This document shows, one piece after another, positions 1,673 to 18,808 of a stretch of DNA of 64,000 nt (position 1 is its first letter; each line of letters opens with the position of its first letter). A model generated the notes under the pieces. The model was not told the origin of the DNA and searched no databases. It saw nothing but the letters and a program-made list of their open reading frames with translations. The stretch is from a virus. The translations under genes were made by a program, and so were the position numbers. The stretch is taken from IMG/VR virus record IMGVR_UViG_3300017991_000072, positions 35,865-99,864 of that record; one strand, 5' to 3'.

Positions 1673-1731
1673 AACCCCACGGGCTCCCTGGGGATCACCC
1701 AGGGAGCCCAGAACCCCAGAAGGAGGACCCC

Positions 1732-1923: not shown

Positions 1924-1938
1924 CGCCCAGGACCCCCG

Positions 1939-2460: not shown

Positions 2461-2527
2461 CGAACCACGGGGGAGGGACCACGGGGGTCCCTCCCCTTCC
2501 CCCAACCCCACAGAGGAGGACAAGAAG

Positions 2528-2962: not shown

Positions 2963-2970
2963 TTGACACA

Positions 2971-3057
2971 GCCCCCTGGTGAAAAAAAATTCGCCAGGGG
3001 GTCTTTTTTCTTCACTTTTCTCTTGACAAATGGGGGACCATGGTTTATAATAGAGCC
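2971..3057 (+). promoter_or_regulatory. Terminator-promoter cassette 3
   Basis: Hairpin and T tract; TTGACA 3023-3028, 17 nt, TATAAT 3046-3051. Confidence 0.9.
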
Positions 3058-3519: not shown

Positions 3520-3593
3520 GACCTGGGAGGAAGCCAGGGAGGGACCCGTGGGTCCCTCCCTTCTTCGTTCAACCCCAAACCCAGGAGGAGACG

Positions 3594-3800
3594 ATGACCA
3601 GAGAAGAGGCCCAACGGATGGACCCAGAGGAGGCCAAGCTGAAGGCCAAGAGACTGGCCCAGGAAGCTGATGAACTGATCTCCAAGATGGAACTGGCCCA
3701 CCCCCATTCCCAACGCTACACTGAACTGTGGAACGAACTGACAGCCGTGGAACAGGAACAGCTAGTTCTGACCTGGGCTCCAGGCTACGGAGCCTGGTGA
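3594..3800 (+). CDS. Small early hypothetical protein
   Basis: Leader ACCCCAAACCCAGGAGG before ATG. Confidence 0.7.
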   Translation: MTREEAQRMDPEEAKLKAKRLAQEADELISKMELAHPHSQRYTELWNELTAVEQEQLVLTWAPGYGAW

Positions 3801-3859
3801 CGGAATAGAGCCCAGGCCCTACCCCTGGCGAACGATCCAGGGGAGGGACCTGGGACGGG

Positions 3860-3891
3860 AGCCCCGGCGTTCAGACCGGGGCTCTTTTTTT
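3860..3891 (+). terminator. Rho-independent terminator
   Basis: AGCCCCGG...CCGGGGCT stem followed by a T run. Confidence 0.75.
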
Positions 3892-3970
3892 GTCTGGATC
3901 CCCTGGCCTATGCTCCGCCTCCGCACCGTCCCGGATGTGGTATTATCCCACCACAATGTCAAGAGAAGAG

Positions 3971-4049
3971 TGAAAAAAATTTCGTCTGGTGTCAAGATTT
4001 CTTCATTTTTCTCTTGACTTTTAGGATTGACCTGGGGTATAATAGGGCC
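3971..4049 (+). promoter_or_regulatory. Promoter cassette 4 (variant)
   Basis: TTGACT 4014-4019, 18 nt, TATAAT 4038-4043. Confidence 0.8.
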
Positions 4050-4050
4050 A

Positions 4051-4098
4051 CAGTCAAGATAGTTGACTGGTTGAATTCGGATCTTTGACAACTGAATA
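4051..4098 (+). promoter_or_regulatory. rrn-like boxB hairpin plus boxA antitermination element
   Basis: CAGTCAA-gatag-TTGACTG hairpin at 4051-4069, then GATCTTTGACAACTGAATA at 4080-4098. Confidence 0.55.
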
Positions 4099-4137
4099 AC
4101 GGACACAGAAACCCCCAAACCCCAAGGAGGGAAACCC

Positions 4138-4377
4138 ATGGACGTGTTCTCTGTTCTGATCATCGTGGCTGTGGTTCTGACCAAGGTGGAGGCCCTGGAG
4201 GACGCCCTGGAGGCTTCTGAAGCGGACTTCTTCCCCGCCCAGGTCCTTGTGGTCCTGGTGGCCAGGGACGCCCTGGTGGGAGCCCTGGCGGGCTTCCTGG
4301 AGACGGGAACGGGGCTCCAGGATCTCCTGGACGCGGCCCTGGACCTGGATGACGCCCTGGTCAAGCTGGCGAAGTAG
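4138..4377 (+). CDS. Small hydrophobic/acidic early protein
   Basis: AAGGAGG SD; ORF. Confidence 0.65.
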   Translation: MDVFSVLIIVAVVLTKVEALEDALEASEADFFPAQVLVVLVARDALVGALAGFLETGTGLQDLLDAALDLDDALVKLAK

Positions 4378-4382
4378 AAACA

Positions 4383-4468
4383 GACCCCCAGAGAAAAAAA
4401 TTCTCTGGGGGTCATTTTTTCTTCATTTTTCCCTTGACTTTTAGGAATGGGTGGTTTATAATAGGGTC
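4383..4468 (+). promoter_or_regulatory. Terminator-promoter cassette 5
   Basis: Hairpin 4383-4413; TTGACT 4434-4439, 17 nt, TATAAT 4457-4462. Confidence 0.9.
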
Positions 4469-4774
4469 ATGATGAACGAAGGAAACAAACCCCAAACCCC
4501 CAAGAAGGAGGAAACCATGAACCAGATGACAACGAAGAAGAACGCGGGAAGAGACATGGTCCGGAAGGTGAAGGCGGAACAGATGTCCTTTGTGACGGAG
4601 GACCAGTTGGCCGTTATCGCGGAGGACGATGAAACCAGGATGACCCCCATCCTTGTCCGCTGTGGGAATGGACGCTTCACGTGTCCCGCCCAGAACGCGG
4701 CCTGGTTCATTGACATCATCACCAAGGAAGGGACGGACTACGTCAGGGACGCCTCCATCTACTCCAGCTACTAG
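4469..4774 (+). CDS. Early hypothetical protein (SD-led ATG 4517)
   Basis: ORF plus SD. Confidence 0.75.
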   Translation: MMNEGNKPQTPKKEETMNQMTTKKNAGRDMVRKVKAEQMSFVTEDQLAVIAEDDETRMTPILVRCGNGRFTCPAQNAAWFIDIITKEGTDYVRDASIYSSY

Positions 4775-4788
4775 CCTGAACCCCTCCA

Positions 4789-4874
4789 GCCCCCCAGAGA
4801 AAAAAATTCTCTGGGGGGCCTTTTTTCTTCACTTTTCTCTTGACTTTCTTGACGGGGTGGGCTATAATAAGATC
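4789..4874 (+). promoter_or_regulatory. Terminator-promoter cassette 6
   Basis: Hairpin; TTGACT 4840-4845, 17 nt, TATAAT 4863-4868. Confidence 0.9.
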
Positions 4875-5327
4875 ATGGAAACAGCGAACAAACCCCAAAC
4901 CCCCAAACCCCAGGAGGACAGAATGTCAGTCACACAGTTCAGCGCGGAAGCCGTTTCCCAGATGGCCCACAGCATAGCCGCCCACGCCCGTCTTGATGAA
5001 GAGTTGGCGGAGATCATCCTGGAGTCCAAGGCGGCCCACCACGCTGGCCGCGTGGAGTTCAACCTGGACACGGATGACGTTTCCTTCAAGCTGGTCCACT
5101 ACATGAGGCTGTCCAACCTGGTGGCCTACTCCATCCAATACCAGGAGCCCATGGTTCCCGTCTACACCATTGATGACTACTACGGGGAACCCCTGGTGGC
5201 CAAGGAGCTGGCGGAGGAAATTGACCACTGGATCTACAACGTCCAGACCAACGCGGGGACCGCCCTGGTGGACCCGCTCTGGTTTGAACTGTTCCAGGCT
5301 GTCAGGGACCACCTGGCCGCGAAGTAG
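4875..5327 (+). CDS. Early hypothetical protein (SD-led ATG 4923)
   Basis: ORF plus SD. Confidence 0.75.
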   Translation: METANKPQTPKPQEDRMSVTQFSAEAVSQMAHSIAAHARLDEELAEIILESKAAHHAGRVEFNLDTDDVSFKLVHYMRLSNLVAYSIQYQEPMVPVYTIDDYYGEPLVAKELAEEIDHWIYNVQTNAGTALVDPLWFELFQAVRDHLAAK

Positions 5328-5340
5328 CCCACGGCCTCCA

Positions 5341-5426
5341 GACCCCCAGAGAAAAAAATTCTCTGGGGGTCATTTTTTCTTCATTTTTCTCTTGACTTTT
5401 CCCCGGGGATGGGTTACAATAAGATC
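5341..5426 (+). promoter_or_regulatory. Terminator-promoter cassette 7
   Basis: Hairpin 5341-5371; TTGACT 5392-5397, 17 nt, TACAAT 5415-5420. Confidence 0.9.
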
Positions 5427-5699
5427 ATGGAAACAGGAAATCAACCCCAAACCCCGAAGGAGCCCAAGATGAAGATGAACCCCAACGGATCAGTCAGTTT
5501 CAGCTATGAAGAGATCGTGGCGGCGGCGGAAGAGACCAAGAAGGCGGAAGCGGCCCGCGCCAACGCGCCCATGATGGCCGTCAGCTATGAAACCCCCGTA
5601 GGGACCTTCAAGGACTGGATCAAGGCGGCGGAGCGCGTGGAGGCTTTGGACATGGACCCCGTGGAGGTCATCAAGGTAGTCAGAACCCCTATCAGCTAA
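5427..5699 (+). CDS. Early hypothetical protein (SD-led ATG 5469)
   Basis: ORF plus SD. Confidence 0.75.
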   Translation: METGNQPQTPKEPKMKMNPNGSVSFSYEEIVAAAEETKKAEAARANAPMMAVSYETPVGTFKDWIKAAERVEALDMDPVEVIKVVRTPIS

Positions 5700-5766
5700 G
5701 GACAGGAACCACGCCCCCCCAGGATCCCCTGGGGGGCCAACCCCAACCCCAACGAAGGAGGACACG

Positions 5767-6165
5767 ATGAACAGACAAGCCAAGATCCCCCAGGAGATGG
5801 CCACCTACCTGGTGGACGCGGAGGACAAAGGCTGGACCGGTGGCCAGGTGACCAGGTGGGTCCGGAACTGGATGAAGGACCTAGTCTGGGATGACAAGGA
5901 CCCCCTGGGGGAGTCCGTGGCCGTGACCGTCCCCTGTTCCCTGGTGGACCAATACGGGAAGCTGATGGCCAAGGAGGACGAAGTCAGGACCTTGATGGAG
6001 ACCAGAGCCCAGACCCTTGGCCTGGTGTCCTGTGACCCCAGGTCTGAAGAGTACAGGGAGACCAGGAGGAAACACCTGAACCTAGTCAACGCCCTGGACA
6101 TGGTCAGGGAGTCCAGGAGGAACCTGGAAGACGCCATGACCTGGGTCCTGTTGGCCCAACTGTAG
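5767..6165 (+). CDS. Early hypothetical protein
   Basis: AAGGAGG SD. Confidence 0.7.
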   Translation: MNRQAKIPQEMATYLVDAEDKGWTGGQVTRWVRNWMKDLVWDDKDPLGESVAVTVPCSLVDQYGKLMAKEDEVRTLMETRAQTLGLVSCDPRSEEYRETRRKHLNLVNALDMVRESRRNLEDAMTWVLLAQL

Positions 6166-6216
6166 ACGAACCCAACGCGGCCCCCTGGGGAGACCTGGGG
6201 GGCCAAGGAGGACCCC

Positions 6217-6522
6217 ATGGAAGGACAAGAACCCAAGATGGTCTCCGTCATGGTGGCGGAGAAGCTTCTACAGGATTATGACACGGCCTTGATGGGAGCC
6301 AGGAACATGGAGGGACGCCTATTGAACGCTGAACAGTGTCTTCTCCAGTCCGTCCTGGACTGTGACCAGGAAGCCTATGAAGAGGCCCTGGCCCAGAGGG
6401 ACAGGGTCCAGGCTTCTCTGGACCTGGCCAAGAACCAGGCGGCGGCCCTGTCCGTCACGATAGCCAAGAAGGCCCTTCAAGACTGGATGACCCCAGGGAC
6501 TCCAGTCTTCCCAGAGGATTGA
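6217..6522 (+). CDS. Early hypothetical protein
   Basis: AAGGAGG SD. Confidence 0.7.
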   Translation: MEGQEPKMVSVMVAEKLLQDYDTALMGARNMEGRLLNAEQCLLQSVLDCDQEAYEEALAQRDRVQASLDLAKNQAAALSVTIAKKALQDWMTPGTPVFPED

Positions 6523-6583
6523 ACCACGGGTCCTCCCGTGGGTTTGGGGTGGGGCTCCCCCAGGGGTGGGGGAGCCCCTTTCT
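6522..6583 (+). terminator. Anti-leader element plus terminator (copy A, 3'UTR)
   Basis: GTCCTCCCGTGGGTTTGGGGT 6530-6550, then 12-bp stem with GGGG loop 6551-6578 and T tract. Confidence 0.75.
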
Positions 6584-6584
6584 A

Positions 6585-6613
6585 TTGACTTCAGGCGGAC
6601 CATGGTCTACACT
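6585..6613 (+). promoter_or_regulatory. Sigma70 promoter for a putative sRNA
   Basis: TTGACT 6585-6590, 17 nt, TACACT 6608-6613; no SD-led ORF downstream. Confidence 0.75.
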
Positions 6614-6619
6614 GAAGCC

Positions 6620-6702
6620 TGATCCACAGGGAACGGCGGGGCTTCCCCGTCCTCCTTGGGGTTTGGGGTAGGGGTCCAGGAGGGGTCCTGGACCCCTCTT
6701 TA
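6620..6702 (+). ncRNA. Putative ~80-nt sRNA antisense to the shared early-gene leader/SD (copy B)
   Basis: GTCCTCCTTGGGGTTTGGGGT 6649-6669 is the reverse complement of ACCCCAAACCCCAAGGAGGAC; 12-bp terminator stem 6670-6697. Confidence 0.65.
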
Positions 6703-6742
6703 TATTGTGGTTCTTCTTGAACAGCTCCCCCACATGTGGTAT
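6696..6742. promoter_or_regulatory. NrdR-box-like pair (32 bp apart)
   Basis: CTCTTTATATTGTGG at 6696 and CCCCACATGTGGTAT at 6728. Confidence 0.5.
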
Positions 6743-6843
6743 GGTGGAACCTGCTAGGGCTGACTTGGTGTCCGTACCAGCGCCGGGTCACTCTGTTTCC
6801 TCCTTTGGGCTCCCCACGCGCCACGGGGAGCCCTTCCCTTCTA

Positions 6844-6859
6844 TGTTCCACGTGAAACC
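6844..6859. promoter_or_regulatory. parS-like site
   Basis: TGTTCCACGTGAAACC, 15/16 match to TGTTNCACGTGAAACA. Confidence 0.65.
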
Positions 6860-7000
6860 CTGACTCCCTGGACCCCCGGGCCATGCTCCGGCCGGAGACC
6901 GTCCCGGATGTGGTATTCATCCACCACAACGTCAAGTCCCCACTTGACACGCCCCCCTTCCTCCTCCCCCCTGGTTATGCTCCCCCCAGGAAATCCGGGA

Positions 7001-7047
7001 CACCACATGTGGTATACCCACGGCCACGGACCCCCTACATTTTGTGG
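7001..7047. promoter_or_regulatory. NrdR-box-like pair (32 bp apart)
   Basis: CACCACATGTGGTAT at 7001 and CCCTACATTTTGTGG at 7033. Confidence 0.55.
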
Positions 7048-7079
7048 TGTCATATAGCGAATTTTTCTACACTGAACCC

Positions 7080-7109
7080 TTGACAACAGGGGGTCCCCTG
7101 GTGTATATT
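7080..7109 (+). promoter_or_regulatory. Promoter 8
   Basis: TTGACA 7080-7085, 18 nt, TATATT 7104-7109. Confidence 0.75.
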
Positions 7110-7126
7110 AGGGGTAGATAGTGAGA

Positions 7127-7552
7127 ATGAAACGGACCCCAGAACCCCAAACCAAGGAGGACAGGATGAACGCAAGAACCAACGATGACTTCAGGAAGGA
7201 AGGAACCAGGAAGGCCACGCTGGCGTTCCTTTCCGCCCTGACAGAACAGGAGGAAAGCGGAGAACCCCCGGCCATGTTCATGATCTGTCAACAGAAGAAC
7301 CCCATCACGGGACGGAGGAATGAAGTCAGGTTGACGGCCGGTGTTCAGGCCATGGGAGCCATAGCGGCCGGTCACGTCCTGAAAGCCGTTCATGACTTTG
7401 ACACCTTCACAGAGGATAATGACCCCTACGGGGAACATGACTTTGGGATCGTCAGGATGGAAGGGGAAACCCTGAACTGGAAGATTGATGACTACCAGGG
7501 CTATGATGGGATTGAATTGGTCCTGACCATCATGACGGCCATGGAATACTAG
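7127..7552 (+). CDS. DUF3768-family protein (SD-led ATG 7166)
   Basis: FDTFTEDNDPYGEHDFG...WKIDDY...VLTIMTAMEY signature. Confidence 0.8.
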   Translation: MKRTPEPQTKEDRMNARTNDDFRKEGTRKATLAFLSALTEQEESGEPPAMFMICQQKNPITGRRNEVRLTAGVQAMGAIAAGHVLKAVHDFDTFTEDNDPYGEHDFGIVRMEGETLNWKIDDYQGYDGIELVLTIMTAMEY

Positions 7553-7613
7553 AAACCCCAGGGAGCCCGGCCACGGCCGGGCTCCCACCACCCCCCAAAC
7601 CAAGGAGGACAGA

Positions 7614-7877
7614 ATGGACCCCATCACGAACCCAAGACCCACCACCCACCAATGGAAGGAAGGGGACAGGGTAGCCTTTTCTAAAGCCTTCCTCCGCAAC
7701 ACTGGCCAGTGTGACTATGAAACGGCCAGAGGCCGGGGGACCATCATCAGCGTGGCCCCCGTGGGGGACCTGACCATAGCGTCTATCAGATGGGACGGGA
7801 TAGGTCTGGTCACTAACGTCAACGTGTTGAACCTGTCCCTGGTCACCAGGGACGGGGTAGTTCAGGACAGGGACTAG
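7614..7877 (+). CDS. Small early protein (possible SH3-like fold)
   Basis: SD; WKEGDRVAF...GTIISV...IRW. Confidence 0.65.
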   Translation: MDPITNPRPTTHQWKEGDRVAFSKAFLRNTGQCDYETARGRGTIISVAPVGDLTIASIRWDGIGLVTNVNVLNLSLVTRDGVVQDRD

Positions 7878-7937
7878 GAAGTCACCAGGGAGCCCTGGCG
7901 CTGGCCGGGGCTCCCACCCCCACCCAAGGAGGACAGG

Positions 7938-8177
7938 ATGGATCTGGAACGCTACAGGGTCTTCACAGCCCAGAAATTCATGGCCATGACCACGGGGGAA
8001 CGCCAGAGGACAAAGCCCACCATGATGTTCAGCCGGGAATACCTGGCCCTGGCCCTGGCGCTGGCCTCTGAAAAGGTCATCATCTATGACGCCCAGGAAG
8101 ACCTGGCGTGGCATTGTGGGGACCTGGTCACGAAGGCGGGATGGTACGATGGGAGCGGACAGCTAGTCAACCCGTAG
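7938..8177 (+). CDS. Early hypothetical protein
   Basis: AAGGAGG SD. Confidence 0.65.
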   Translation: MDLERYRVFTAQKFMAMTTGERQRTKPTMMFSREYLALALALASEKVIIYDAQEDLAWHCGDLVTKAGWYDGSGQLVNP

Positions 8178-8351
8178 CCCTTCACCGGGGACCTGGTGAA
8201 GGGGTCCCCTTGGTTAGCCGGTCCCGGGGAAACCCGGGGCCGGTCTTTTTATGCTCCCCTCTGGCCCCGTCCCGGATTGTGGTATACTGTATCCACAATG
8301 TCAAGCCCTGGCTTGACGGGCCGTCTGCTAATCCACGAAAAGCCGGGACGG

Positions 8352-8395
8352 CCCCACATGTGGTAGGCCCCGTCCACCACCCCTATATTTTGTGG
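8352..8395. promoter_or_regulatory. NrdR-box-like pair (29 bp apart)
   Basis: CCCCACATGTGGTAG at 8352 and CCCTATATTTTGTGG at 8381. Confidence 0.5.
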
Positions 8396-8407
8396 TGTCC
8401 GTGGGCG

Positions 8408-8457
8408 TCTTTTTCTTCACTTTTCTCTTGACAAAAGGGGAACGCCGGGCGTATAAT
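8408..8457 (+). promoter_or_regulatory. Promoter cassette 9
   Basis: TTGACA 8428-8433, 18 nt, TATAAT 8452-8457; GCTGAAC-N5-GTTCAGC hairpin just after the TSS. Confidence 0.85.
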
Positions 8458-8518
8458 AGACCTGTAAGCTGAACAAAGGGTTCAGCGAAACCCCAACCCC
8501 CAACCAAGGGAGGACAGA

Positions 8519-8716
8519 ATGTTGGTAGCGTGTTACAAGACCAAGAAGGCTTTGAAGGAAGCCGTGGGACAGGCTCTTCTATATGAAGAGACTTCCTTGT
8601 TCGGGGAGGAATACCGCCCGGACGGGACGTTCCCAGTGGTAGGCCCCGGGGCCTATGAGCGTAAATGGTACGCGGAAGTTACCATGAAGGGAGGGAAGAT
8701 CCACAAGGTCAAGTAG
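8519..8716 (+). CDS. Small phage hypothetical protein
   Basis: SD; YKTKKALKEAVGQ.L.Y.ETSLFG.EY...KWYAEVTM. Confidence 0.75.
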   Translation: MLVACYKTKKALKEAVGQALLYEETSLFGEEYRPDGTFPVVGPGAYERKWYAEVTMKGGKIHKVK

Positions 8717-8775
8717 GAACCTGAACCGGCCCGGGGCTCCGGCCCCGGGCCATTCTTCCAACCAAGGGAGGAACC

Positions 8776-9060
8776 ATGAACACACAAGAGACCCTAGAAT
8801 TCACTGGACACCAGATGGCCCGGGCCAATACGGTCCTGTCAAGCCTTGACGGAGCTGGCCCTATGTCCGTCTGTAAAGCCGCCGCCGTGGCCCAGAAGGC
8901 CAACCAAATAGCGGAAAGCCTACCAGCCCTTGACAAGCTGGCCGGACACCTTGAAAGCCATCCTGATGACCCCGTGGCCCTTCTGGCCGTTCAAGCCTAT
9001 ACCGTGGCCGTGGGCGTCCACCTTGACCTTCTGGAACTGACCCTTCAAATGACCCTATAG
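8776..9060 (+). CDS. Early hypothetical protein
   Basis: GGAGG SD. Confidence 0.65.
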   Translation: MNTQETLEFTGHQMARANTVLSSLDGAGPMSVCKAAAVAQKANQIAESLPALDKLAGHLESHPDDPVALLAVQAYTVAVGVHLDLLELTLQMTL

Positions 9061-9324
9061 CCTCCCCCCAGGGGGGAGGAATTCCCCCTTGGTTGGCCCC
9101 GGTCCCTTCTGGGACCGGGGCCTTTCTTTTGTCAACCCCAGACTTGACATAGTGGTGTGCAAATGTCATTTTCCGTCCCGGACGTTGACCGTTTCCCAGG
9201 GCTCCCAGAGCGGAGCGGAGCGGAGCGGGTCCCCGTAGGGGACCACGGCCCCCGTCCCATCCGGGACGGGGGCCGGGAACCGCATAGAGAGAAGAGACCG
9301 GAACCGGACCCGGCCGGACCCACC

Positions 9325-9396
9325 TGAAAAAAAATTCGCGGGAGGACGTTTTTTCTTCACTTTTCCCTTGACTTTCGTTCTGGGATGGTTTAGAAT
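9325..9396 (+). promoter_or_regulatory. Promoter cassette 10
   Basis: TTGACT 9368-9373, 17 nt, TAGAAT 9391-9396. Confidence 0.85.
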
Positions 9397-9405
9397 AGGG
9401 GTGTA

Positions 9406-10362
9406 ATGAGGAAACGAAACACACCCCAAACCCCGAAGGAGGCCAAGATGGCAACACAGAGCGGACAGGACAAGGTTTTCCAGATCTTCACAGACCAGAT
9501 CATGGACATGTTGGAAGAGGGGACGGTCCCCTGGCGTCAACCTTGGAAGGGCGGGAAGATCCCCATGTCCTTCCAGACCAAGCGGCCCTACCGTGGGATG
9601 AACGTCTGGTTCCTGAACAGCGTGGCCATTCATCGCGGCTACACATCCAACTGGTGGGTGTCCCTGAAGTCAGTGAAGAAGGCCAAGGGCTGGATCAAGG
9701 ACGATGAATTCAAGAAGTCAGTGACCGTGATCTTCTGTAGGCCCAAGCGGTACGAAGTGGAGACGGACGAAGTGGACGAACAGGGCCAGCCGGTCAAGGA
9801 AGAGCGGATGTCCTTCATCTACTTCTACCACACGGTATGGAACATGGACCAGGTGGAAGGGATGACGGCCCCTGACGCGGACCAGGACGCGGAGGAGCGG
9901 ACCCCCAACCAGATCCTTGAAGAGGCCCAGGCCATCATTGACGGCTACCAGAACGGCCCAGAGATCAGCCACGGCGGGACCAGGGCTTTCTATCGTCCCT
10001 CTGATGACTCCGTGACGGTCCCAGAGATGGAACTGTTCCAGGACAGCGAGAACTACTACCACGTGATGTATCATGAACTGGCACACTCCACGGGTCACGG
10101 TTCCCGCCTTGGGCGGAAGGGAGTCATGGACCTGACCATGTTTGGATCCCATGACTACTCCAAGGAGGAACTGGTGGCGGAGATGGGAGCGGGCTTCCTG
10201 GGAGCCCTGGTGGGACTGACCCCCAGGACCATTGACAACACGGCGGCCTACATCCAGTCCTGGCTGAAGGCCCTGAACGATGACAAGCGGCTCCTGGTCT
10301 ACGCGGCCAGCAAAGGCCAGGCGGCGGCGGAACACATCCTGGGCGTGACCTGGGAAGGATAA
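9406..10362 (+). CDS. ardC: ArdC-family antirestriction ssDNA-binding/zincin protein (SD-led ATG 9448)
   Basis: GTVPWRQPW, PYRGMN, AFYRPSDD, HELAHSTGH..RL.R, YSKEELVAE, AAYIQSWL motifs. Confidence 0.92.
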   Translation: MRKRNTPQTPKEAKMATQSGQDKVFQIFTDQIMDMLEEGTVPWRQPWKGGKIPMSFQTKRPYRGMNVWFLNSVAIHRGYTSNWWVSLKSVKKAKGWIKDDEFKKSVTVIFCRPKRYEVETDEVDEQGQPVKEERMSFIYFYHTVWNMDQVEGMTAPDADQDAEERTPNQILEEAQAIIDGYQNGPEISHGGTRAFYRPSDDSVTVPEMELFQDSENYYHVMYHELAHSTGHGSRLGRKGVMDLTMFGSHDYSKEELVAEMGAGFLGALVGLTPRTIDNTAAYIQSWLKALNDDKRLLVYAASKGQAAAEHILGVTWEG

Positions 10363-10437
10363 CAGGGAGGAAGCCTGGGAGTCCCACAGTGGGGCTCCCA
10401 GGCCCTTCAAACCCCAAACCAGAAGGAGGACAGAACG

Positions 10438-10911
10438 ATGGAACAGACAGACTACACAGCGGACAGAGAACTGGCGGTCAAGGCCCTGGAACAGATGGAC
10501 TACATCCACCTGGAACGCGGACAGGTGGCGGCCCTGGTGGACACCTACCGGGTCATCACCACCCATAACCCTGGCGCGGTCCCAGGCCATGAAGAGGAAC
10601 TAGGGACCCTGGCCGGGCTCCTGGTCATGAGCGTAGGAACTGGCGTCAAGCTGATCCCAGAGGACGGACCCCCCAACGTCCGGGTGGGAGTCCCCAGGCT
10701 CCTGGTGGAAGCCATCAAGGACATCAACATCCAGAGGGACAAACTGGCGGCCTACAAGGAGGAACACAAGGACGGAGGAGGACCAATAGACCCCAAGTCC
10801 ATGGAAGTCCTGGAGGCCCAACAGGCTACCCACAGGGCGGCCCTTTCCACGGCCCTGGTCAACGTCATCATCACGGACTTGGCTGGAATGGCGGACGCTG
10901 GAAGCTACTAG
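10438..10911 (+). CDS. Early hypothetical protein
   Basis: Shared leader plus SD. Confidence 0.7.
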   Translation: MEQTDYTADRELAVKALEQMDYIHLERGQVAALVDTYRVITTHNPGAVPGHEEELGTLAGLLVMSVGTGVKLIPEDGPPNVRVGVPRLLVEAIKDINIQRDKLAAYKEEHKDGGGPIDPKSMEVLEAQQATHRAALSTALVNVIITDLAGMADAGSY

Positions 10912-11052
10912 ACTGACCCTCCCCCACAGAGCCCCGGCCCGGTTCGTCCGGTCCGGGGCTCTTCTTTTATGCGGGCCGGGACTAGCGTCCCGGATATACG
11001 CCATTTCCCACGGTCCCCATCACGTGGTAGACTATGGATGAAAGGAGATCCC

Positions 11053-11355
11053 ATGACCTACACTCTATCCCAGGCGGGGACGGCCTACGCTGAAGCGGCG
11101 GCCACGTGGGCCAGGGCTATGGAAGCGGAGGAGGCGGTCAGACAAGAAGGCCCTGACCTGAAGGTTGACAAGTTCCTCCACGTGACGGCCTTGTCCACAG
11201 TGATCCGCCAGGCTATGAACGGCCTGTCCCAGGCTGTCATGATCTTCATCTGGCGAAACAACGAAGGGAACCACGCGGTCCTGGAAGCGGCCATGGCGGA
11301 GACTATCCGCGTGACGGCGGACGCCAACGCCCTTATGGACTCCTACGGATACTGA
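11053..11355 (+). CDS. Early hypothetical protein
   Basis: AAGGAG SD; upstream TAGACT -10 at 11028-11033. Confidence 0.65.
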   Translation: MTYTLSQAGTAYAEAAATWARAMEAEEAVRQEGPDLKVDKFLHVTALSTVIRQAMNGLSQAVMIFIWRNNEGNHAVLEAAMAETIRVTADANALMDSYGY

Positions 11356-11503
11356 ACCCCCTGGACCCCTGGGCCACCAATGACTGTTTATTAACCCTGA
11401 ACTGTCATTCTGTTGTTACCGGTTATCAGGCCCAGGGGTCTTTTCTTTCCCCCACGCGGGCGCGGGCGGGCGCGTGGGCGCGTATACGCGGGCGCGGGGC
11501 TCC

Positions 11504-11581
11504 TGAAAAAAGTTCTCCCAGGGCGTTTTTTTCTTCACTTTTCTCTTGACATCCGTGGACGGGTCCCCTATAATAAGGACC
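11504..11581 (+). promoter_or_regulatory. Promoter cassette 11
   Basis: TTGACA 11546-11551, 17 nt, TATAAT 11569-11574. Confidence 0.9.
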
Positions 11582-11965
11582 ATGGACACAGCGACAAACC
11601 CCAAACCCCAAACCACGGAGGACAACATGTCCACACTGAACGCCCTTGGAACCCTTCTCTACAGCCTCCCCGTTCCCACCCGTCACGCCTACACCATCAC
11701 CATCTGTGACCAATACCAGGACACAGAGCCTACCACCTGTGTGGTCAACGCGGAGACCCAGGGCGCGGCCCTGGCCAAGGCTGTGGAGGTCTACTCCACA
11801 GAATTCTACGGCCACGCGGTCACCCTGGACCCCCAGGTCCTTCATGACGCTGTCACCGTCATCTTCCATCCTGACGGCGGCGTGAACCCCGTGGGGTTCT
11901 TCGCCAGTGACCCCCAACCCATCCGCCTTCAGCGCCTTGGGGACCCTGTCCCCTTGTCCGCGTAA
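11582..11965 (+). CDS. Early hypothetical protein (SD-led ATG 11627)
   Basis: ORF plus SD. Confidence 0.7.
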   Translation: MDTATNPKPQTTEDNMSTLNALGTLLYSLPVPTRHAYTITICDQYQDTEPTTCVVNAETQGAALAKAVEVYSTEFYGHAVTLDPQVLHDAVTVIFHPDGGVNPVGFFASDPQPIRLQRLGDPVPLSA

Positions 11966-12031
11966 GCGGACCCCCTGGGGGGTGGGAATTCTCCCACCCC
12001 CCGGCTGGAACCCCAAACCCAGGAGGACATC

Positions 12032-12232
12032 ATGGACCAAGTCAAGAAGAGCCTGACCAAGAAAGCCCTGAAGGCCAAGCTGAACCAAGCCAGGGAAGAG
12101 CTGACCTACCTGGAGGACTTCCTGGCGGGACCCTGTTGTGTGTCCCACGCGGAGATTGACGCGGCCGGGGATGACACCTACAGGCTTCAGAAGGAGATCA
12201 GGGAGCTGAAGGAGGCCCTGGCGGCCCTGTGA
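12032..12232 (+). CDS. Small coiled-coil early protein
   Basis: Shared leader plus SD. Confidence 0.7.
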   Translation: MDQVKKSLTKKALKAKLNQAREELTYLEDFLAGPCCVSHAEIDAAGDDTYRLQKEIRELKEALAAL

Positions 12233-12253
12233 TCTTTTTTTCGTCAGGCGGCG

Positions 12254-12307
12254 TTTTTTCTTCACTTTTCTCTTGACAAAGCCTGAAGGATGGTTTACAC
12301 TTACACC
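12254..12307 (+). promoter_or_regulatory. Promoter cassette 12
   Basis: TTGACA 12273-12278, 17 nt, TACACT 12296-12301. Confidence 0.85.
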
Positions 12308-12955
12308 ATGGACACAGACCGCAAACCCCAGACCCAGGAGGACACGATGAACGAAGATCACATCACCCAAGAGGCCACGCGGCGGCTGGAAGCCCTTCAC
12401 CCCTACCTGACCAGGGAGATCAAGCTGGCTCCCCCGTCTCCCCCAGAGAAGACGGCTGAAGAGTACAGGGAAGAAGCGGCCCGTCACGCGGCGGAGCGCC
12501 TACGGTCCCAACAGGAGTCAGACACGGACGGGTTCCTGTCCCAGTGGGCCAGCGGCCTGAACAGTTCCCTGGCGTCCAGGCGGGCGGAGATCAAGGAGAA
12601 CGGCGGGAACTGGGAGTTCTGGGGACTCTACCGTAGGGCGGACGGGAAGCGGATCAGGGCCAAGATGATAGACGGGAAGTATGGCCTCTGTTGGGCCATC
12701 TGTGACGAACATTCCACCTTCACGGGTCAGTTCTTCTCCGTGGACGGGACGGGCTCCAAGAGGACCAAGCTGTGGAAGGCTGGCCTGGAAGAGCGGCGTG
12801 AAATGGCCCCGGCTTGGGCCAAGATGGACGGGAAGGGAACGGGCCTGTCAGGTCAGGCTTGGGTGTCCACCTACAGGATAGACGGCGGCTACCCCTTGGA
12901 CGCGGTCAACCTGGACTCCCCCGTGGAGGACCCTGACCCCACGCCGGACCCATAG
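12308..12955 (+). CDS. Early hypothetical protein (SD-led ATG 12347)
   Basis: ORF plus SD; SDTDGFLSQWA motif. Confidence 0.75.
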   Translation: MDTDRKPQTQEDTMNEDHITQEATRRLEALHPYLTREIKLAPPSPPEKTAEEYREEAARHAAERLRSQQESDTDGFLSQWASGLNSSLASRRAEIKENGGNWEFWGLYRRADGKRIRAKMIDGKYGLCWAICDEHSTFTGQFFSVDGTGSKRTKLWKAGLEERREMAPAWAKMDGKGTGLSGQAWVSTYRIDGGYPLDAVNLDSPVEDPDPTPDP

Positions 12956-13177
12956 CCTTCCCCCAAGAAGGCCAAGAGGACGGAAGCGGAACTACGGCGG
13001 GACCTTTCCGCCATCATGAGGGGTCACAGAGTATGTCAGGACTGTGGCCAGGTCAGGCCCACGGCTGAAGTCCACGTCCCTGGACGTGGGATGGCTAGGG
13101 TCTGTCAGGACTGCTATGACGTGGCTGTCTATGAACTGACGGCCTAACCCCAACCCCCAGGACAGGAGGAAGGAACG

Positions 13178-14479
13178 ATGGACAAGGAGAAGATCAAGGA
13201 GCTGTGTGACAAGGTGGAACACCTGACTGAATGGGCTGAAATAGGCGCGGCCTGGACAAGGGACCAGGCCACGTCAGAGTCCACGGAGAAGGACGCCAGG
13301 GTCAACCTGGAACTGGCCCACCAGGAGGAGAAGGAACTGTTGGACTTCCTGACGGGCCTGATCAAGGAGGAGGACACCAGGTCCCCGGAGATGGTGTCCC
13401 TGGATTGGATGTTTGACGCGGCGGAGGAACACCTTCTGGACGAAGACGGAGAAGTCACCTGTGAAGTGGAGGAACTACGGACCCACTACCAGGTAGTCCT
13501 GAACAACTTGAAGGAGCTGGCCCTTCTTCGTGAACGCTACCAGTCCTTGAAGATCAGGGCCTTCTCCGCCATGTATGGAACCTTCATTCCCGCCAGGGAG
13601 GACGGGCTGAACCACTACTTCCAGTCCATCACGGCGGAGCGGGAGGCCAAGGAAATGACGGAGGCCCTGGACGCCCTGGAACACCTGAACAAGGAGGCCA
13701 GGGAAGGGAACATAGCTGTCTACGATGGGGAAGAGAACTGTGAAGCCCTTCTTCAGGACATCAAGGACGCCTACAGGATCCTGTGGGACTTCATCACGGG
13801 CTCCAACACCAGGAACATTCAGAACCTTCCCAGGACGGTCACAGGACGGTTCACGGACTCCCCCAATTTCCAGGAGGTCCCCAAGACGGAGTCCACGGCG
13901 CGGCCCATCGTGAAGGCCCCTGGTCCCTCCCCCTACGCCCAGATCTTCCAGGTCATTGGGAACGTGGTTCCCCAGGAAGCGGCGGAAGCTGTGGACCTGG
14001 CCATCCGTCAGTATGACGGATCCTTCAGCGGGACTCCCCTGAAGGACCTAGTGATGAAGACCTGGGGAGCCCTGGACGGGGACGCCAGGATGGCCCATGA
14101 CAGGCTGTCAGGCCACATCCAGACCAGCGCGGACCCAGACATCAGGGAGGACAGGCTGAAGGACCTGGTGACCCTGGTGGGCTCCCTGAACGCTGAAGAG
14201 AAGGCCAGCTACTCCGTGGCTGTGGACATGTTCCTGAAGGCCAGGATCATCTCCACGTTTGAACGGGCCTTTGACATCAACCATACGGAAGCGGCGGAGA
14301 TCTTTGACAGGGTCCAGGACGGGGAGCCCTTGGAGGCCATCCTGGTGGACATCCTGACCGTGGCGGAACGCCATGACCCCAACCAGTTCAGGGCGGGGAT
14401 CTTGGCCATCCTGAAGAAGGGACATGGGATCTCCAACGCCCAGAACAAGATTGGGGGTGATCCCAGTGATAAAGAGTGA
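13178..14479 (+). CDS. Large helical hypothetical protein
   Basis: 433-aa ORF, SD. Confidence 0.75.
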   Translation: MDKEKIKELCDKVEHLTEWAEIGAAWTRDQATSESTEKDARVNLELAHQEEKELLDFLTGLIKEEDTRSPEMVSLDWMFDAAEEHLLDEDGEVTCEVEELRTHYQVVLNNLKELALLRERYQSLKIRAFSAMYGTFIPAREDGLNHYFQSITAEREAKEMTEALDALEHLNKEAREGNIAVYDGEENCEALLQDIKDAYRILWDFITGSNTRNIQNLPRTVTGRFTDSPNFQEVPKTESTARPIVKAPGPSPYAQIFQVIGNVVPQEAAEAVDLAIRQYDGSFSGTPLKDLVMKTWGALDGDARMAHDRLSGHIQTSADPDIREDRLKDLVTLVGSLNAEEKASYSVAVDMFLKARIISTFERAFDINHTEAAEIFDRVQDGEPLEAILVDILTVAERHDPNQFRAGILAILKKGHGISNAQNKIGGDPSDKE

Positions 14480-15398
14480 CATCCTGGACATGGTGGACAA
14501 GATGGTCCAGGCGGGCCAGCTACACACGGAAGTCCTGGAGGCCCTGGGACACCTGGCGGACGAACACACGGACCACATCCTGAAGGAGAAGCTGGACCAC
14601 CAGGCGGCGGAACACGCCCGGCGCTGTGACCAGTTTGTTGACCAGATCGTTCAGACAGATCAGCGGTTCATGGACTTCCTGAAGATGGCCTACGCCATGG
14701 ACGCGGACACGGCCAAGGAGACCCTGAAGCTGATCAAGCGGGGACTGTTCCCAAGCCAGATCCTACGGGACGCCCTGTCTGAAGGAGAACGCCAGAAGGC
14801 GGCCCTGGAACACGCGGGCCTGGGGGACGCCATGAAGGCGGCCGGGGATGTCTTCAGGGAGCTGGAAAGTGAGAAGCCCAAGCTGAAGGTCACCCTTCCT
14901 GACGGGTCCACGCGGGAGTCCGTCCCAGACAAACCCTGGGACCCTGACGGCTCCAGGCCAAACCACCAGCCCAAGTCTCCGTTCCCTCTGGTGGTGGATG
15001 TCAAGGTGGACCCAGAGAACGAAGAACACAGGGACTATGTGATGGGCCTGATCTGTGAACATCTCCCTGACGGCCAGCTACAGGTCAGATGTGACCTGGA
15101 CCCGGACACGGAGGACCTGGCCTTCATCTGGAGGATTGAATGGTCCTTCCAGGAGAAGCGGACGGACGGGGAGATCCCTGTGACCCGTGGCGTGGCCCTG
15201 GAAATAGGCCACAAGGAAGGGACCCTGGTCAAGGATCTCCCTGGGGTAGCCATGGGACTGGCCAGGACCCTGAAGGCCAAGAGGAAGCGGGCCTATGGAG
15301 ACATAGAAGCCCCCTGTCTGGAATGTGAAGGAGCCTACGCGGACGGAAACCCATGTCAAGACTGTGACGAAGGAGAAGGAAATGGCCATCAAGGATAG
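14466..15398 (+). CDS. Hypothetical protein with C-terminal CxxC...CxxC
   Basis: ORF; start uncertain (GTG 14466 or ATG 14490). Confidence 0.7.
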   Translation: MIKSDILDMVDKMVQAGQLHTEVLEALGHLADEHTDHILKEKLDHQAAEHARRCDQFVDQIVQTDQRFMDFLKMAYAMDADTAKETLKLIKRGLFPSQILRDALSEGERQKAALEHAGLGDAMKAAGDVFRELESEKPKLKVTLPDGSTRESVPDKPWDPDGSRPNHQPKSPFPLVVDVKVDPENEEHRDYVMGLICEHLPDGQLQVRCDLDPDTEDLAFIWRIEWSFQEKRTDGEIPVTRGVALEIGHKEGTLVKDLPGVAMGLARTLKAKRKRAYGDIEAPCLECEGAYADGNPCQDCDEGEGNGHQG

Positions 15399-15606
15399 AG
15401 GAGAACTGGAAGAGCGCGGGATTGAAATTGATCTGTCAGGTCCCCAGGGGAACGGGTTTGTCCTGATTGGGTACGCCAGGAAATGGGCCAAACAGTTGGG
15501 GAAGGACGCGGACGCCATCACCAAGGACATGGAGTCAGGAGACTATGACCACCTGGTTGAAGTCCTGGAACGGGAGTTTGGGGACTACGTCACCATCTAC
15601 AGGTAG
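15382..15606 (+). CDS. Small phage hypothetical protein
   Basis: IEIDLSGPQGNGFVLIG...MESGDYDHLVEV...FGDYV. Confidence 0.75.
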   Translation: MAIKDRGELEERGIEIDLSGPQGNGFVLIGYARKWAKQLGKDADAITKDMESGDYDHLVEVLEREFGDYVTIYR

Positions 15607-15615
15607 GAGCCCAAG

Positions 15616-15825
15616 ATGAAACACATCAGACTGGGAAGACCCCAGGTCTTCAACGTCCAGACAGGTGACGAAAGATGCTACTTCTGTGACAAGCCACCCA
15701 CGGGGGCCTGTAGGAGCTGTGGAGCCCACGTCTGTGACGATCATGACGAACACCAGGGACAGGACGGGAAGCCCTGTCCCACGGGGAGCGTCCACGGAGC
15801 CCCGAAGGAGGACGCTGATGGCTAA
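15616..15825 (+). CDS. Small Zn-finger protein
   Basis: CYFC...CRSC...VCDDH. Confidence 0.65.
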   Translation: MKHIRLGRPQVFNVQTGDERCYFCDKPPTGACRSCGAHVCDDHDEHQGQDGKPCPTGSVHGAPKEDADG

Positions 15826-16246
15826 GTTCACACGGCCACGGATCCATTGGGAGAAGTCAGGGGTGGAAGTGTGCTACTTTTGCCTGACTGAACTACCTGA
15901 ACACGTCTGTCCACGATGTAGAGCCCACGTGTGTGACCTACACTGGAAGAAGCGGCCCAAGATGTGTTCCCAGTGTCACCTTGGACACTACCCTGACCAA
16001 TACACCAAGGAAAGGCTTCTGAAGAACCTGGACACCCTGGTGGCGGTCACGGCCAAGACGTGGGCGGAACAGACCCCCAACTGGCAAACCATACAGAGGA
16101 AGGAACGGATCACGGATGTCAGGCTGATGGGGGAGGCCATCCGCCACTACATCCTGTCAAGTGAAAAATGTTCCCAGGAAGAGGCCCAGAAGCCCCCAGA
16201 AGAAGAGCGGAGCGGGGGAAGGATACTACGGAGCCCGAAGAACTGA
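15818..16246 (+). CDS. Zn-finger protein
   Basis: CYFC...CPRC..HVCDLH...CSQC; GGAGG SD. Confidence 0.7.
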   Translation: MAKFTRPRIHWEKSGVEVCYFCLTELPEHVCPRCRAHVCDLHWKKRPKMCSQCHLGHYPDQYTKERLLKNLDTLVAVTAKTWAEQTPNWQTIQRKERITDVRLMGEAIRHYILSSEKCSQEEAQKPPEEERSGGRILRSPKN

Positions 16247-16261
16247 AGAGTCTACATGAAG

Positions 16262-16324
16262 CCCACAGGTCCTCCTGTGGGGTTTGGGGTGGGGAGCCCG
16301 GAGGGGTCCGGGCTCCCCTTTTCT
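16262..16324 (+). terminator. Anti-leader element plus terminator (copy C, 3'UTR)
   Basis: GTCCTCCTGTGGGGTTTGGGGT 16269-16290; 12-bp stem with GGGG loop 16291-16318; T tract. Confidence 0.75.
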
Positions 16325-16439
16325 ATGGGGGCGGGGGTCTTGACGCTGGTGGCGTGAAGTGGATAGGCTGTCAACATTGGCGGGAAGACTGGGCCTGGCG
16401 GGGACATACTACCTGTGGGGGGTAGTGAAGGAGGACAGG

Positions 16440-16850
16440 ATGAAGAAGATCCTGACTCTGGCCCTGTTGGCTGTCTTGGTGTGGAGCCTTGGCGGCTGTT
16501 CAACCATTGGCCAGGCTATGGTCCAGAAGAGCATGAACGGCGCGGAGATAGCCAAAGCCTACTATGACCAAGGGAAGGACGGGAGGACCTACAACCCCGT
16601 CATCCTGGAGGCGGCGGAAGGGGAAACCATGTCCATCACCATCAACGGGTTGGCCAAGGTGGCCCTGACTACGCCACATGAACCCCTTAGCGTATACCCA
16701 AGGGATCCTTCCACCCTGGGCCAACTGTTGGACGGTCTGTGGAAGATAGGGACCGTCATTGGGTCCACCATCGTAGGGGAGAAGATGGTGGAAGGTCTGT
16801 CACGCGGGCCTACCATCGTGGAGCCCAAGGTGGTCACCGTCCCCAGATAG
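16440..16850 (+). CDS. Lipoprotein
   Basis: MKKILTLALLAVLVWSLGGC lipobox; AAGGAGG SD. Confidence 0.75.
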   Translation: MKKILTLALLAVLVWSLGGCSTIGQAMVQKSMNGAEIAKAYYDQGKDGRTYNPVILEAAEGETMSITINGLAKVALTTPHEPLSVYPRDPSTLGQLLDGLWKIGTVIGSTIVGEKMVEGLSRGPTIVEPKVVTVPR

Positions 16851-17110
16851 AAAAGAGGAGCCCCTGGGGACATGTGCGAAACCCCAGGGACTCTACCATG
16901 GCTGGCGTGATGGGAAAAGAAATGGAGCCTCATGTCAGAGCCCCTAAAGAAACCCATCACAGGACCTATGATACGCGGCCCCTGGGGCTCCTGTCAAGAG
17001 AAAAATGTTCCCTGTGTTTCTTCCTGGGGACCCCCGGGCGCGGCGTAGCCAGGCGAACAGGCCAACGGGGGTCCAGACCCCCGTGGTCTACGTCTGTTCC
17101 TACCGTGCTA

Positions 17111-18808
17111 CTACTCCCAGAACGATTGAAGGTCAACTTCATCCTGTGGCTCCTGTTCCTGTGGGGTAGCTGTCTTCAGATCCGTCAGCCCATCGTTCCC
17201 ATCACTACCGTCCGTCAAGTCTTCATTGTCAAGTGAAGAATGTTCTTGGTCACCTTGGTCACTCACCAGTCCTCCAGAGGTCATTTCAGAGCCAGCGCCA
17301 AGATGTGAACGGTATGAGTCTTCGTGAAGTCTCCGTGAAGCCTCCTGGGGAGACATCCCTGGAAGGACTGACATGGAAGGTAGGAGGCCCCGCTTGGCCT
17401 TCTCTATCAGGACGGCCACCTGGCCGGTCCCATCTGATAGGGTCAGGCTCCTCTTGACTTCCCCGCTGTCAGGGTCCAACAATTTCACCAGGTCCTTCAG
17501 CCTTTTGTGGACTTCCCCTACTAGAATGTCTGTTCTCTCTTCTGGAACCCCAGTGATAGCCTCCCTCAATAGGGCTTCTTCTATCCTGGCCAGATCCTTG
17601 GTAGCCAGGCCAGCCATGGCGGCCAGGGCGTCAAGGTGTGAGCCTATGACATGTCTGTCCAGTAGCCCCTGGTGTTTACAGTCATGGCCCTGGTCATAGT
17701 CTGGACACTTCCCCTTCAGAGGACACCTGTCACAGGTACGCTTCACAGCCCCACCAAATAGGCCACCCTCCAGTTGGATAGGCCCCATCTGTGTCCCTGG
17801 TGACCCACAGGTTCCGATAATATCAGTTATGTTAACTTTTCCAGGGACCCCTGACCCCACAGGGACCCCTTCCTGACCCCCTTCTGTCAAGGTCCCACAT
17901 GACAGGGGGTCCCCAGGAGCCCCCTGGCTATGCTCTTCTCCATCTCCGTCCCGGATCTCGCTTATATCTAGCCCATTCGTCAAGTTATTACTTGACAAAG
18001 TCTCCTTCACAACATCTTGTGGCGCTCCATCTTGTGGTACATTCCCTTGTGGTACTACATCTTGTGGCCCTAGATCTTGTGGCCCCTCTGCTAATCGTCG
18101 AAGATCCGGGACGGGAGAATGCGGCGGGACAGGAGAAACAGCCCCAATATCTTGTAGCACTACATCTTGTGGTACTACATCTGGCCCCCTACCGCTTGTA
18201 CCACTAGATCTTGTACTACTAGATGTGGTGGCGTCCAGAAAACGCTCCAAGAGGGACCGGCGGACAGGAGGCCCTTGGGGTTCTTCCTTATTGACCCCTG
18301 TTTTCACCTGGGGTCCTTCCTCTGTAGGGTCCAATGTATCCCTGGCTTTCCCCTTTGTATTCTGGGGAACTTCCTTCTCTGTGTTCTGTTCTTCCGCTTT
18401 GGCTGACCCTCCACCCCGCGCCCTGGGTTTCCCCGTTCCCTGTTCTTGTCTGGACTCCAGTTCCTCCATCCCCTTCTTGGCTCTGTCCAATGGATCGTCT
18501 GACTGGTCTTCCTTGTAGCCTGTCAGGGCCTTCATCATAGCTGTAGCCATGTCTGGACCCTTGGCTGGACCCTTCCCCGCCGCCTGGGGTTCCCCCTTCT
18601 CCGCCTTCTGACCCTGTACTGTGGGGACCTTCAGGAGCCTCTTCTTCTTGGCTCCCCCCTTTGTCCGCCGTGAAGTCCCATTTTCTGGGGTCTTTCCGCT
18701 GAAATCTTCGTTTTTGGGTGGGGGTGTTTCCGCTTTCAGCTTTCTTTTCTTGACAACAGGGGGTTCCCCACGCCCTGTCTTTTCCGCTGAATTCCGCTTC
18801 TTGGCCAT
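17111..18808 (-). CDS. Large low-complexity protein with a C-terminal Cys4 motif; contains the 15-bp DNA array
   Basis: GGAGG SD before ATG 18808; CDRC..KCPDY..GHDC. Confidence 0.6.
   Translation of the reverse strand: MAKKRNSAEKTGRGEPPVVKKRKLKAETPPPKNEDFSGKTPENGTSRRTKGGAKKKRLLKVPTVQGQKAEKGEPQAAGKGPAKGPDMATAMMKALTGYKEDQSDDPLDRAKKGMEELESRQEQGTGKPRARGGGSAKAEEQNTEKEVPQNTKGKARDTLDPTEEGPQVKTGVNKEEPQGPPVRRSLLERFLDATTSSSTRSSGTSGRGPDVVPQDVVLQDIGAVSPVPPHSPVPDLRRLAEGPQDLGPQDVVPQGNVPQDGAPQDVVKETLSSNNLTNGLDISEIRDGDGEEHSQGAPGDPLSCGTLTEGGQEGVPVGSGVPGKVNITDIIGTCGSPGTQMGPIQLEGGLFGGAVKRTCDRCPLKGKCPDYDQGHDCKHQGLLDRHVIGSHLDALAAMAGLATKDLARIEEALLREAITGVPEERTDILVGEVHKRLKDLVKLLDPDSGEVKRSLTLSDGTGQVAVLIEKAKRGLLPSMSVLPGMSPQEASRRLHEDSYRSHLGAGSEMTSGGLVSDQGDQEHSSLDNEDLTDGSDGNDGLTDLKTATPQEQEPQDEVDLQSFWE
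18008..18231. repeat. Tandem 15-bp array of NrdR-box-like units (5+6 copies)
   Basis: Units such as CACAACATCTTGTGG, TACTACATCTTGTGG, CCCTAGATCTTGTGG, CACTACATCTTGTGG at 18008-18082 and 18143-18231. Confidence 0.8.

Follow-up and report, generated by a model that had tools for sequence, protein, structure and literature searches.

We found three paralogous elements, here named A, B and C, on the plus strand in the early region of an uncultured phage, and each of them carries the reverse complement of a leader that precedes about 20 early genes. The DNA analyzed, hereafter called the window, is a stretch of 64,000 nucleotides that corresponds to bases 35865–99864 of the 99.9-kb phage record IMGVR_UViG_3300017991_000072 in IMG/VR (G+C 58%), a phage occurring in sediment and seawater metagenomes; positions given below are those of the window. 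As judged from the sequence, A, B and C are selected, structured features of the plus strand, and element B is probably a real small RNA (sRNA). An antisense action of the elements on the early leaders, which had been proposed in a first-pass annotation of this DNA, is plausible but unproven.

The elements lie among small plus-strand genes that form the early region (1340–17000), and the genes on both sides are on the minus strand, structural genes to the left and replication genes to the right. Neither the region nor a 572-aa neighbour had a DNA or protein match among the GenBank phage records, and no deposited phage is close.

Architecture and conservation of elements A, B and C

Elements A (6524–6584), B (6620–6706) and C (16262–16324) follow one plan of four parts: hairpin 1, whose loop and 3′ arm make up an anti-Shine–Dalgarno (anti-SD) sequence, an unpaired G/T linker of 9 nt, a terminator with a 12-bp stem and a GGGG loop, and a U tract. 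The first-pass annotation had described three plus-strand copies of the reverse-complemented leader, each leading into a GGGG-looped stem of 12 pairs and a T tract, and all of these parts were found, with the stem-loops at 6551–6578, 6670–6697 and 16291–16318. According to the sequence and its predicted fold, hairpin 1 of element A (6524–6541) has a 7-bp stem and a TCCT loop; the following linker (6542–6550) complements the C-rich block of the leader, and the intrinsic terminator (6551–6584) closes the operon begun at promoter 5392. Element C, which closes the operon from promoter 12273, consists of hairpin 1 at 16262–16281 (again with a TCCT loop), the linker at 16282–16290, the terminator at 16291–16318 and a T tract. 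The two elements start 2 nt and 16 nt past the stop codons of genes 6217–6522 and 15818–16246, respectively, and their folds agree with the proposal that both stand at operon 3′ ends and present TCCT in a hairpin loop.

Element B had been proposed to possess its own promoter and no open reading frame (ORF). The promoter (TTGACT-17-TACACT, 6585–6613) is present and has the same form as the 12 early promoters described below, and the predicted RNA of about 85 nt, running from ~6620 to ~6706, holds no start codon led by a Shine–Dalgarno sequence (SD). In the predicted fold of this candidate sRNA, a leader-like 5′ arm (6621–6632) pairs with the anti-leader (6649–6669) around an inner hairpin (6635–6651), and the terminator (6670–6697) and a tail follow; folds of three orthologues were compared, and no ORF is conserved. 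Hairpin 1 is longer in B than in A and C, and B is almost fully paired.

Intrinsic terminators were recognized at 6551–6584, 6670–6706 and 16291–16324 on the plus strand only. Since the promoter and the U tracts face this way, and since the fold of B needs four G-U pairs (−53.7 kcal/mol on the plus strand, −43.2 kcal/mol on the minus strand), we assigned A, B and C to the plus strand as RNA features. B has its own promoter, its own terminator and no coding frame, and it is kept in relatives, as would be expected of an sRNA gene; we rate B as likely real because it shows the marks of a functional promoter and terminator and yet encodes nothing. Over 1–18000, none of the Rfam families (C4 among them) exceeded its gathering score, and only sub-threshold matches at chance level appeared (for example sX12 at C, with 32.6 bits against a gathering score of 106).

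Relatives were obtained from a protein-guided scan of JGI metagenome contigs, which provided two contigs of a strain of 99% identity (L157 and L158) and a real relative (L159); the conservation of B is judged on three related genomes only. Both A and B are kept in L159, in which the neighbouring protein is 67% identical to that of the window. Hairpin 1 and the linker of A agree at 28/28 positions plus one inserted base, a C in the loop, and the terminator stem of A is shifted with compensation. As for B, both promoter hexamers are identical in L159 (−35, 6/6; −10, 6/6; together 12/12) and the spacer agrees at 9/17 positions, 8/17 being different. The 5′ arm of B matches at 21/22 positions, the inner hairpin at 8/13 with pairing retained, and the anti-leader plus terminator at 49/49. 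Only five bases differ within 6523–6716 in the 99% strain; among them, the A at 6626 is replaced by a C, whose pairing partner is a G inserted after 6657, and the inserted G shifts the perfect match of B from one leader variant to another.

Across the six aligned copies (A, B, C and their orthologues), the terminator stems are paired in 72/72 cells with 7 of the 12 pairs changed on both sides, and the anti-SD heptamer, an 11-nt G/T block and the loop are invariant, as is the linker of A. Such a combination of invariant unpaired bases with covarying stems is what would be seen if the unpaired bases were recognized by their sequence. No orthologue of C was obtained, and the 99% strain keeps C up to 16292 and then differs. 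No ORF conserved between the relatives was found on either strand of 6520–7100. Within the gene that precedes A (6217–6522), DNA identity to L159 is 64% over the first 236 nt and 97% over the last 70 nt (6453–6522), and this high identity may reflect either an RNA-level constraint upstream of A, where a 9-bp hairpin is seen in the window, or a recombination boundary.

Further searches for relatives added little. In IMG/VR, none of the relatives found by DNA polymerase (G001–G003) or by the leader word (G004) spans the early region, their contigs stopping at its edges; pattern scans with the linker-plus-stem word, the core of B and the core of a neighbouring RNA, D, gave chance matches or none; and protein-guided scans with the genes flanking A and B gave no match. 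A GTDB genome scan for the leader returned 31 single unrelated matches and no relative, and the public runs listed for the region included no RNA run. In contigs of run X7, which represent a more distant relative, 6503–7304 is uncovered at 80% likeness, which is only a coverage gap.

The shared early leader and its complementarity to the elements

The leader core, ACCCCAAACC, is present in 14 copies on the plus strand and 3 copies on the minus strand of the whole 99.9-kb genome, and all but one of the plus-strand copies lie within 1398–12021, directly 5′ of a strong SD and a start codon. A relaxed leader pattern matched 16 times against 6.2 expected matches, and 0 of 100 shuffles reached 16. 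All eleven positions at which the first-pass annotation had placed a shared leader and SD before an early gene do carry the leader. As the proposed target, the leader comprises a C-rich block, 0–6 nt, a strong SD and a start (1398–12026, plus strand), and twelve of the early genes that bear it stand behind consensus sigma-70-type promoters. The 12 cassettes thus defined have in common a T-rich upstream block, near-consensus −35 and −10 hexamers, about 25 nt, the C-rich block, the strong SD and the start codon. Because the C-rich block and SD also precede operon-internal genes, there behind GC-rich hairpins, the leader is tied to translation starts and not to promoters. The core is identical in L157, L158 and L159.

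In 10 of the 12 cassettes (1379–12349), an upstream ATG lies 7–18 nt past the −10 hexamer, and in every case it shares the reading frame of the SD-led start, no stop codon coming in between. These ATGs would imply leaderless translation and an N-terminal extension of 13–17 aa that contains the leader, and so the leader in these 10 cassettes is probably also translated. The nucleotide motif falls in two different reading frames, which places the constraint on the leader at the nucleotide level.

The cassettes also resemble the PeSL cassettes of T4-type phages (discussed below) in that a terminator, a sigma-70-like promoter and an SD lie between small genes, and indels between relatives are bounded by cassettes. 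The early region of L159 is mosaic in gene content. A related strain seen in two public runs joins leader to leader, from 5435 to 9421, omitting 3985 bp, and shows several further cassette-bounded replacements, as expected from recombination between repeated cassettes.

Reading of the sequence confirmed the claim that 6651–6668, within B, is an exact complement (18/18) of 4113–4130. Exact complements of at least 10 nt were found for 13–17 of the 28 early start regions and for 0 of the 58 late ones, and hence the complementarity is extended, target-specific and beyond chance. Interactions were scored by two-molecule folding, as an earlier scheme of unrestricted duplex folding plus opening energies forced over-long duplexes and was dropped. 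The median folding gain was −13 kcal/mol for early regions versus −2 to −4.5 kcal/mol for late ones, and duplexes of the bare segments reached −31 to −41 kcal/mol. Furthermore, what stays constant in the elements, across paralogues and orthologues, is precisely the complement of the two conserved blocks of the leader. In the predicted folds, A and C leave the TCCT loop and the 9-nt linker single-stranded, and B has nearly all of its anti-leader paired.

As neither A nor C copies any present leader, their match is not accounted for by recent copying. Pairing of A and C in cis with the leaders of their own operons was considered and rejected, as these leaders rank only 12–24 (A) and 8–26 (C) among the 28. 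Given that the best partners are consensus leaders of other operons, any action of A and C would be in trans.

RNA D, degenerate copies and the surrounding early region

Small RNA genes seem to be a feature of this locus, since a second candidate sRNA, D (6717–6847, plus strand), adjoins B. Its promoter (TTGAAC-17-TATGGT with TG, 6717–6745) is of the extended −10 type, and the predicted RNA of about 95 nt, starting at ~6752, consists of a variable 5′ hairpin, an unpaired stretch that holds CCUCC (6791–6806) and a terminator (6807–6833) with its tail. The unpaired stretch is identical at 16/16 positions in both relatives, that is, in all three genomes, and the 5′ hairpin shows 47–62% identity with pairing kept through G-U-rich changes. 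This hairpin is a local hotspot, with 62% identity in the otherwise 99% identical strain.

At two further plus-strand sites, 8197–8252 and 9064–9130, a terminator is preceded by a hairpin and accompanied by an inverted leader that is degenerate and lacks an intact anti-SD; both sites are conserved in L159. The best match of these partial inverted leaders is the leader subtype of their own or an adjacent operon (their own in the case of 9064–9130), and the own-operon leaders rank 1–5 for these copies, whose terminators lie at 8217 and 9095.

Several other features of the region were recorded. A composite element occurs in three plus-strand copies (3926–3965, 6899–6940 and 8268–8310), each laid out as a conserved 10-nt block followed by TGTGGTAT, a short spacer, an inverted CCACAA and TGTCAAG, which could be an operator or an extended −10 promoter. 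The perfect 10-bp palindrome CCACATGTGG is found at 6730–6739 and 7003–7012 in the non-coding stretch, both times within blocks that are 100% conserved in L159, and block 6976–7045 is 85% identical to L159 with flanks at 38–49%. On the minus strand, an early-type promoter with the usual T-rich upstream block (TTGACA-18-TATCAT) opens a unit at 16997–16848 that continues with an RNA of about 110 nt, folded at −51.8 kcal/mol (z = −4.4), and with a terminator; this unit is located at the convergence of the early and late gene blocks, and the stop codon of gene 16440–16850 lies within it. The early genes include those for an ArdC-like anti-restriction protein with a zincin peptidase domain (9448–10362, plus strand) and a DUF3768 protein (7166–7552, plus strand). 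The minus strand of the genome holds two motifs of four G runs, and one of them, at genome position C1:6079–6103 outside the window, has the same 12-nt G/T block as the elements, followed by two more G runs, on the sense strand of a late structural gene.

Possible antisense action, rival explanations and known systems

The first-pass annotation had read the elements as multi-target sRNAs directed against the early leaders. What has stood of this reading is that the elements are of the plus strand, conserved and structured and that their complementarity is specific to early genes; what has not is a readily available anti-leader in B and a pairing gain clearly above that of shuffled RNAs. From the sequence, we regard an antisense brake on the early leaders as a tentative explanation with somewhat less than an even chance of being right. 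In such a brake, A, B and C would be three paralogous RNA modules, each composed of an anti-SD hairpin and a GC-rich, GGGG-looped terminator joined by an unpaired G/T linker; B would be made from its own early-type promoter as a separate and very stable RNA of ~85 nt, and A and C would form the 3′ ends of two early operons. The invariant loop and linker bases would pair with the C-rich block and SD of the leader in about 20 early mRNAs, and the duplex, once nucleated, could grow to 18–21 bp, covering the ribosome-binding site. With the accumulation of the stable anti-leader RNAs, early-gene translation would be damped, and the duplexes may also be cut. Transcription, pairing in vivo and repression are the parts of this reading that we infer, and the "feedback timer" suggested earlier is pure inference.

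Several points weigh against the brake. Dinucleotide-shuffled RNAs gain a median of −10 kcal/mol with the leaders, compared with −13 kcal/mol for the real RNAs. The anti-leader of B is masked by the leader-like 5′ arm in the predicted fold, and the change at 6626 that pairs with the inserted G in the 99% strain suggests that selection keeps this anti-leader paired and not exposed. All three elements would be produced at the same time as their targets and are fewer than them. The leader is unchanged in the relatives, so there is no covariation of leader and anti-leader to read. Conservation of the C-rich leader, for which antisense targeting had been offered as the reason, needs no antisense RNA, as the leaders are parts of repeated promoter cassettes and are probably translated in 10 of the 12. 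Finally, the terminators at 8217 and 9095 with their degenerate inverted leaders fit an origin from inverted cassettes in which the leader half can decay. A variant that accommodates the masking is, in our opinion, rather doubtful: A, B and C together with D as an anti-SD RNA would govern translation of the whole early set through one leader that doubles as coding sequence for the N-terminal extensions, and the anti-leader would stay masked until its hairpin is opened by target excess, an RNase or a helicase.

Early-gene shut-off is a central step of lytic infection, and model phages use proteins for it (RNA polymerase modifiers, RegA and RegB). We know of no phage for which a regulon-wide RNA brake of this kind has been described experimentally. 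If the brake is real, one small RNA family that addresses about 20 mRNAs by their common leader would be a compact and portable way to time a whole gene class; it would represent a new class of phage riboregulators and give a selective reason for the uniform promoter and leader cassettes.

The elements likely arose when a shuffling cassette of PeSL type was inverted, an origin that leaves their present function unsettled. They could be ordinary terminators derived from an inverted intergenic module (A-rich tract, GC hairpin and leader), in which the anti-leader has no function in trans and is retained as a hairpin 1 that stabilizes the 3′ end and perhaps also by occasional copying from the many leaders, with B as the remnant of a cassette that lost its gene. 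The forward module of hairpin plus leader does exist inside operons (~7560–7610, 10380–10440 and 11985–12030), and its stem at 7560 is nearly the same as the terminator stem of C. The decayed inverted leaders at 8217 and 9095, the mosaic region in relatives with joints at cassette boundaries, the buried anti-leader of B with its pairing-preserving change and the net pairing gain near that of shuffled controls point in the same direction. However, a loop and linker needed only for structure should drift, and yet they are invariant in three paralogues in which 7 of the 12 stem pairs have changed; a dead cassette would not require the promoter hexamers of B to be kept against a diverged spacer; and A and C copy no existing leader. 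On balance, we consider this explanation somewhat unlikely, although, if true, it would show that shuffling cassettes can be turned round into terminators. An improbable alternative is that transcription of B, and perhaps of D, is constitutive and ends after a short distance, at the terminator, unless a phage antiterminator modifies RNA polymerase, so that the locus gates read-through into the genes from 7166 on and the anti-leader content is incidental. B would then resemble the 6S transcript of lambda pR′-tR′, which is controlled by Q. Here, indeed, a strong terminator lies within 85 nt downstream of a promoter without any ORF, the next unit is of the same build, and a conserved non-coding stretch of 230 nt with palindromes lies before the next operon. 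That operon, however, has its own consensus promoter at 7080, no antiterminator gene was recognized among the ten early proteins scanned, and A, C and the invariant anti-leader bases would be left unexplained.

The G-rich sequence of the elements suggests still another role, which we hold to be very unlikely, in which a G-quadruplex in the RNA or the non-template DNA competes with the terminator hairpin and tunes termination or 3′-end stability. By sequence, each element fits a canonical G-quadruplex motif, for which the linker block supplies two runs of four G and the terminator supplies the other two, from the beginning of its stem and from its loop; on the plus strand of the 99.9-kb genome, four such runs at most 8 nt apart are found in A, B and C only, and none of the four varies among the six aligned copies. 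Nevertheless, the three sites copy one element and so amount to a single observation, the invariant anti-SD heptamer has no place in this explanation, and selection acts on the hairpin as such, as is evident from the covariation of its 12-bp stem. As to the opposite strand, its SDs had been said to lead to frames of 4–16 codons or to no start, and this is what we found: the frame after the SD has 16 codons at A and 4 codons at C, and B offers only a GTG at a distance of 21 nt. There is in addition a minus-strand frame of 66 codons from GTG 6791 that has a good SD and crosses B. As conserved genes, ORF 6791–6591 was rejected for indels that shift its frame in both relatives, ORF 6603–6319 for lack of conservation and the 16-codon frame at A for the loss of its stop in L159. 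Real leaders of such mini-ORFs, or hairpins that show the SD core to an RNA-binding protein, would give the minus strand a function, and its order of hairpin, C-rich block and SD is that of the forward internal leaders, with the DNA under the 16-codon frame 97% identical in L159. Yet no minus-strand promoter faces A or B, the frame after A loses its stop in L159, those after B and C are absent or 4 codons long, the longer ones shift between relatives, and the G-U pairs turn into mismatches; a function of the minus strand is thus unlikely, to the point that we hardly expect it.

Known systems share individual traits with the proposed antisense brake. The c4 (immI) RNA of phages P1 and P7, studied by Citron and Schuster in 1990, is reportedly folded so that exposed bases can pair with complementary sites in the leader of a phage mRNA, and this pairing blocks the ribosome-binding site. 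Like c4, the RNA proposed here would be a small folded phage RNA complementary to a phage mRNA leader. In contrast to c4, which acts on two sites of its own single operon, the leader addressed here is common to about 20 genes in many operons, and the element exists in three paralogous copies. The c4 antisense RNA (Rfam C4 family) is also mentioned in PMC8198154. In T4, early mRNAs are shut off by proteins, with RegB cutting inside the SD and RegA binding start regions (PMC3014915); the proposed brake would likewise aim a phage function at a feature common to the start regions of many early mRNAs, except that its agent would be RNA and the shut-off is itself a proposal. In the icaR mRNA of Staphylococcus aureus, a C-rich anti-SD motif in the 3′ untranslated region (UTR) pairs with the 5′UTR of the same mRNA, forming a duplex that has been proposed to keep ribosomes off and to recruit RNase III (PMC3868564). 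A and C similarly hold an anti-SD motif in a 3′UTR, just before the terminator, that is complementary to an SD region, but the leaders of their own operons are not their best partners, and B is predicted to be a separate transcript. As portrayed in PMC2839356 and PMC4122927, T4-type PeSL cassettes consist of a terminator stem-loop, a strong sigma-70-like early promoter and an SD between small non-essential early genes, which are reshuffled by recombination between cassettes. Within that portrayal, the 12 cassettes found here and the mosaic relatives fit the PeSL kind, whereas PeSLs are described there as forward units, and inverted copies that complement the leader, or stand-alone promoter-plus-terminator units without a gene, fall outside that description.

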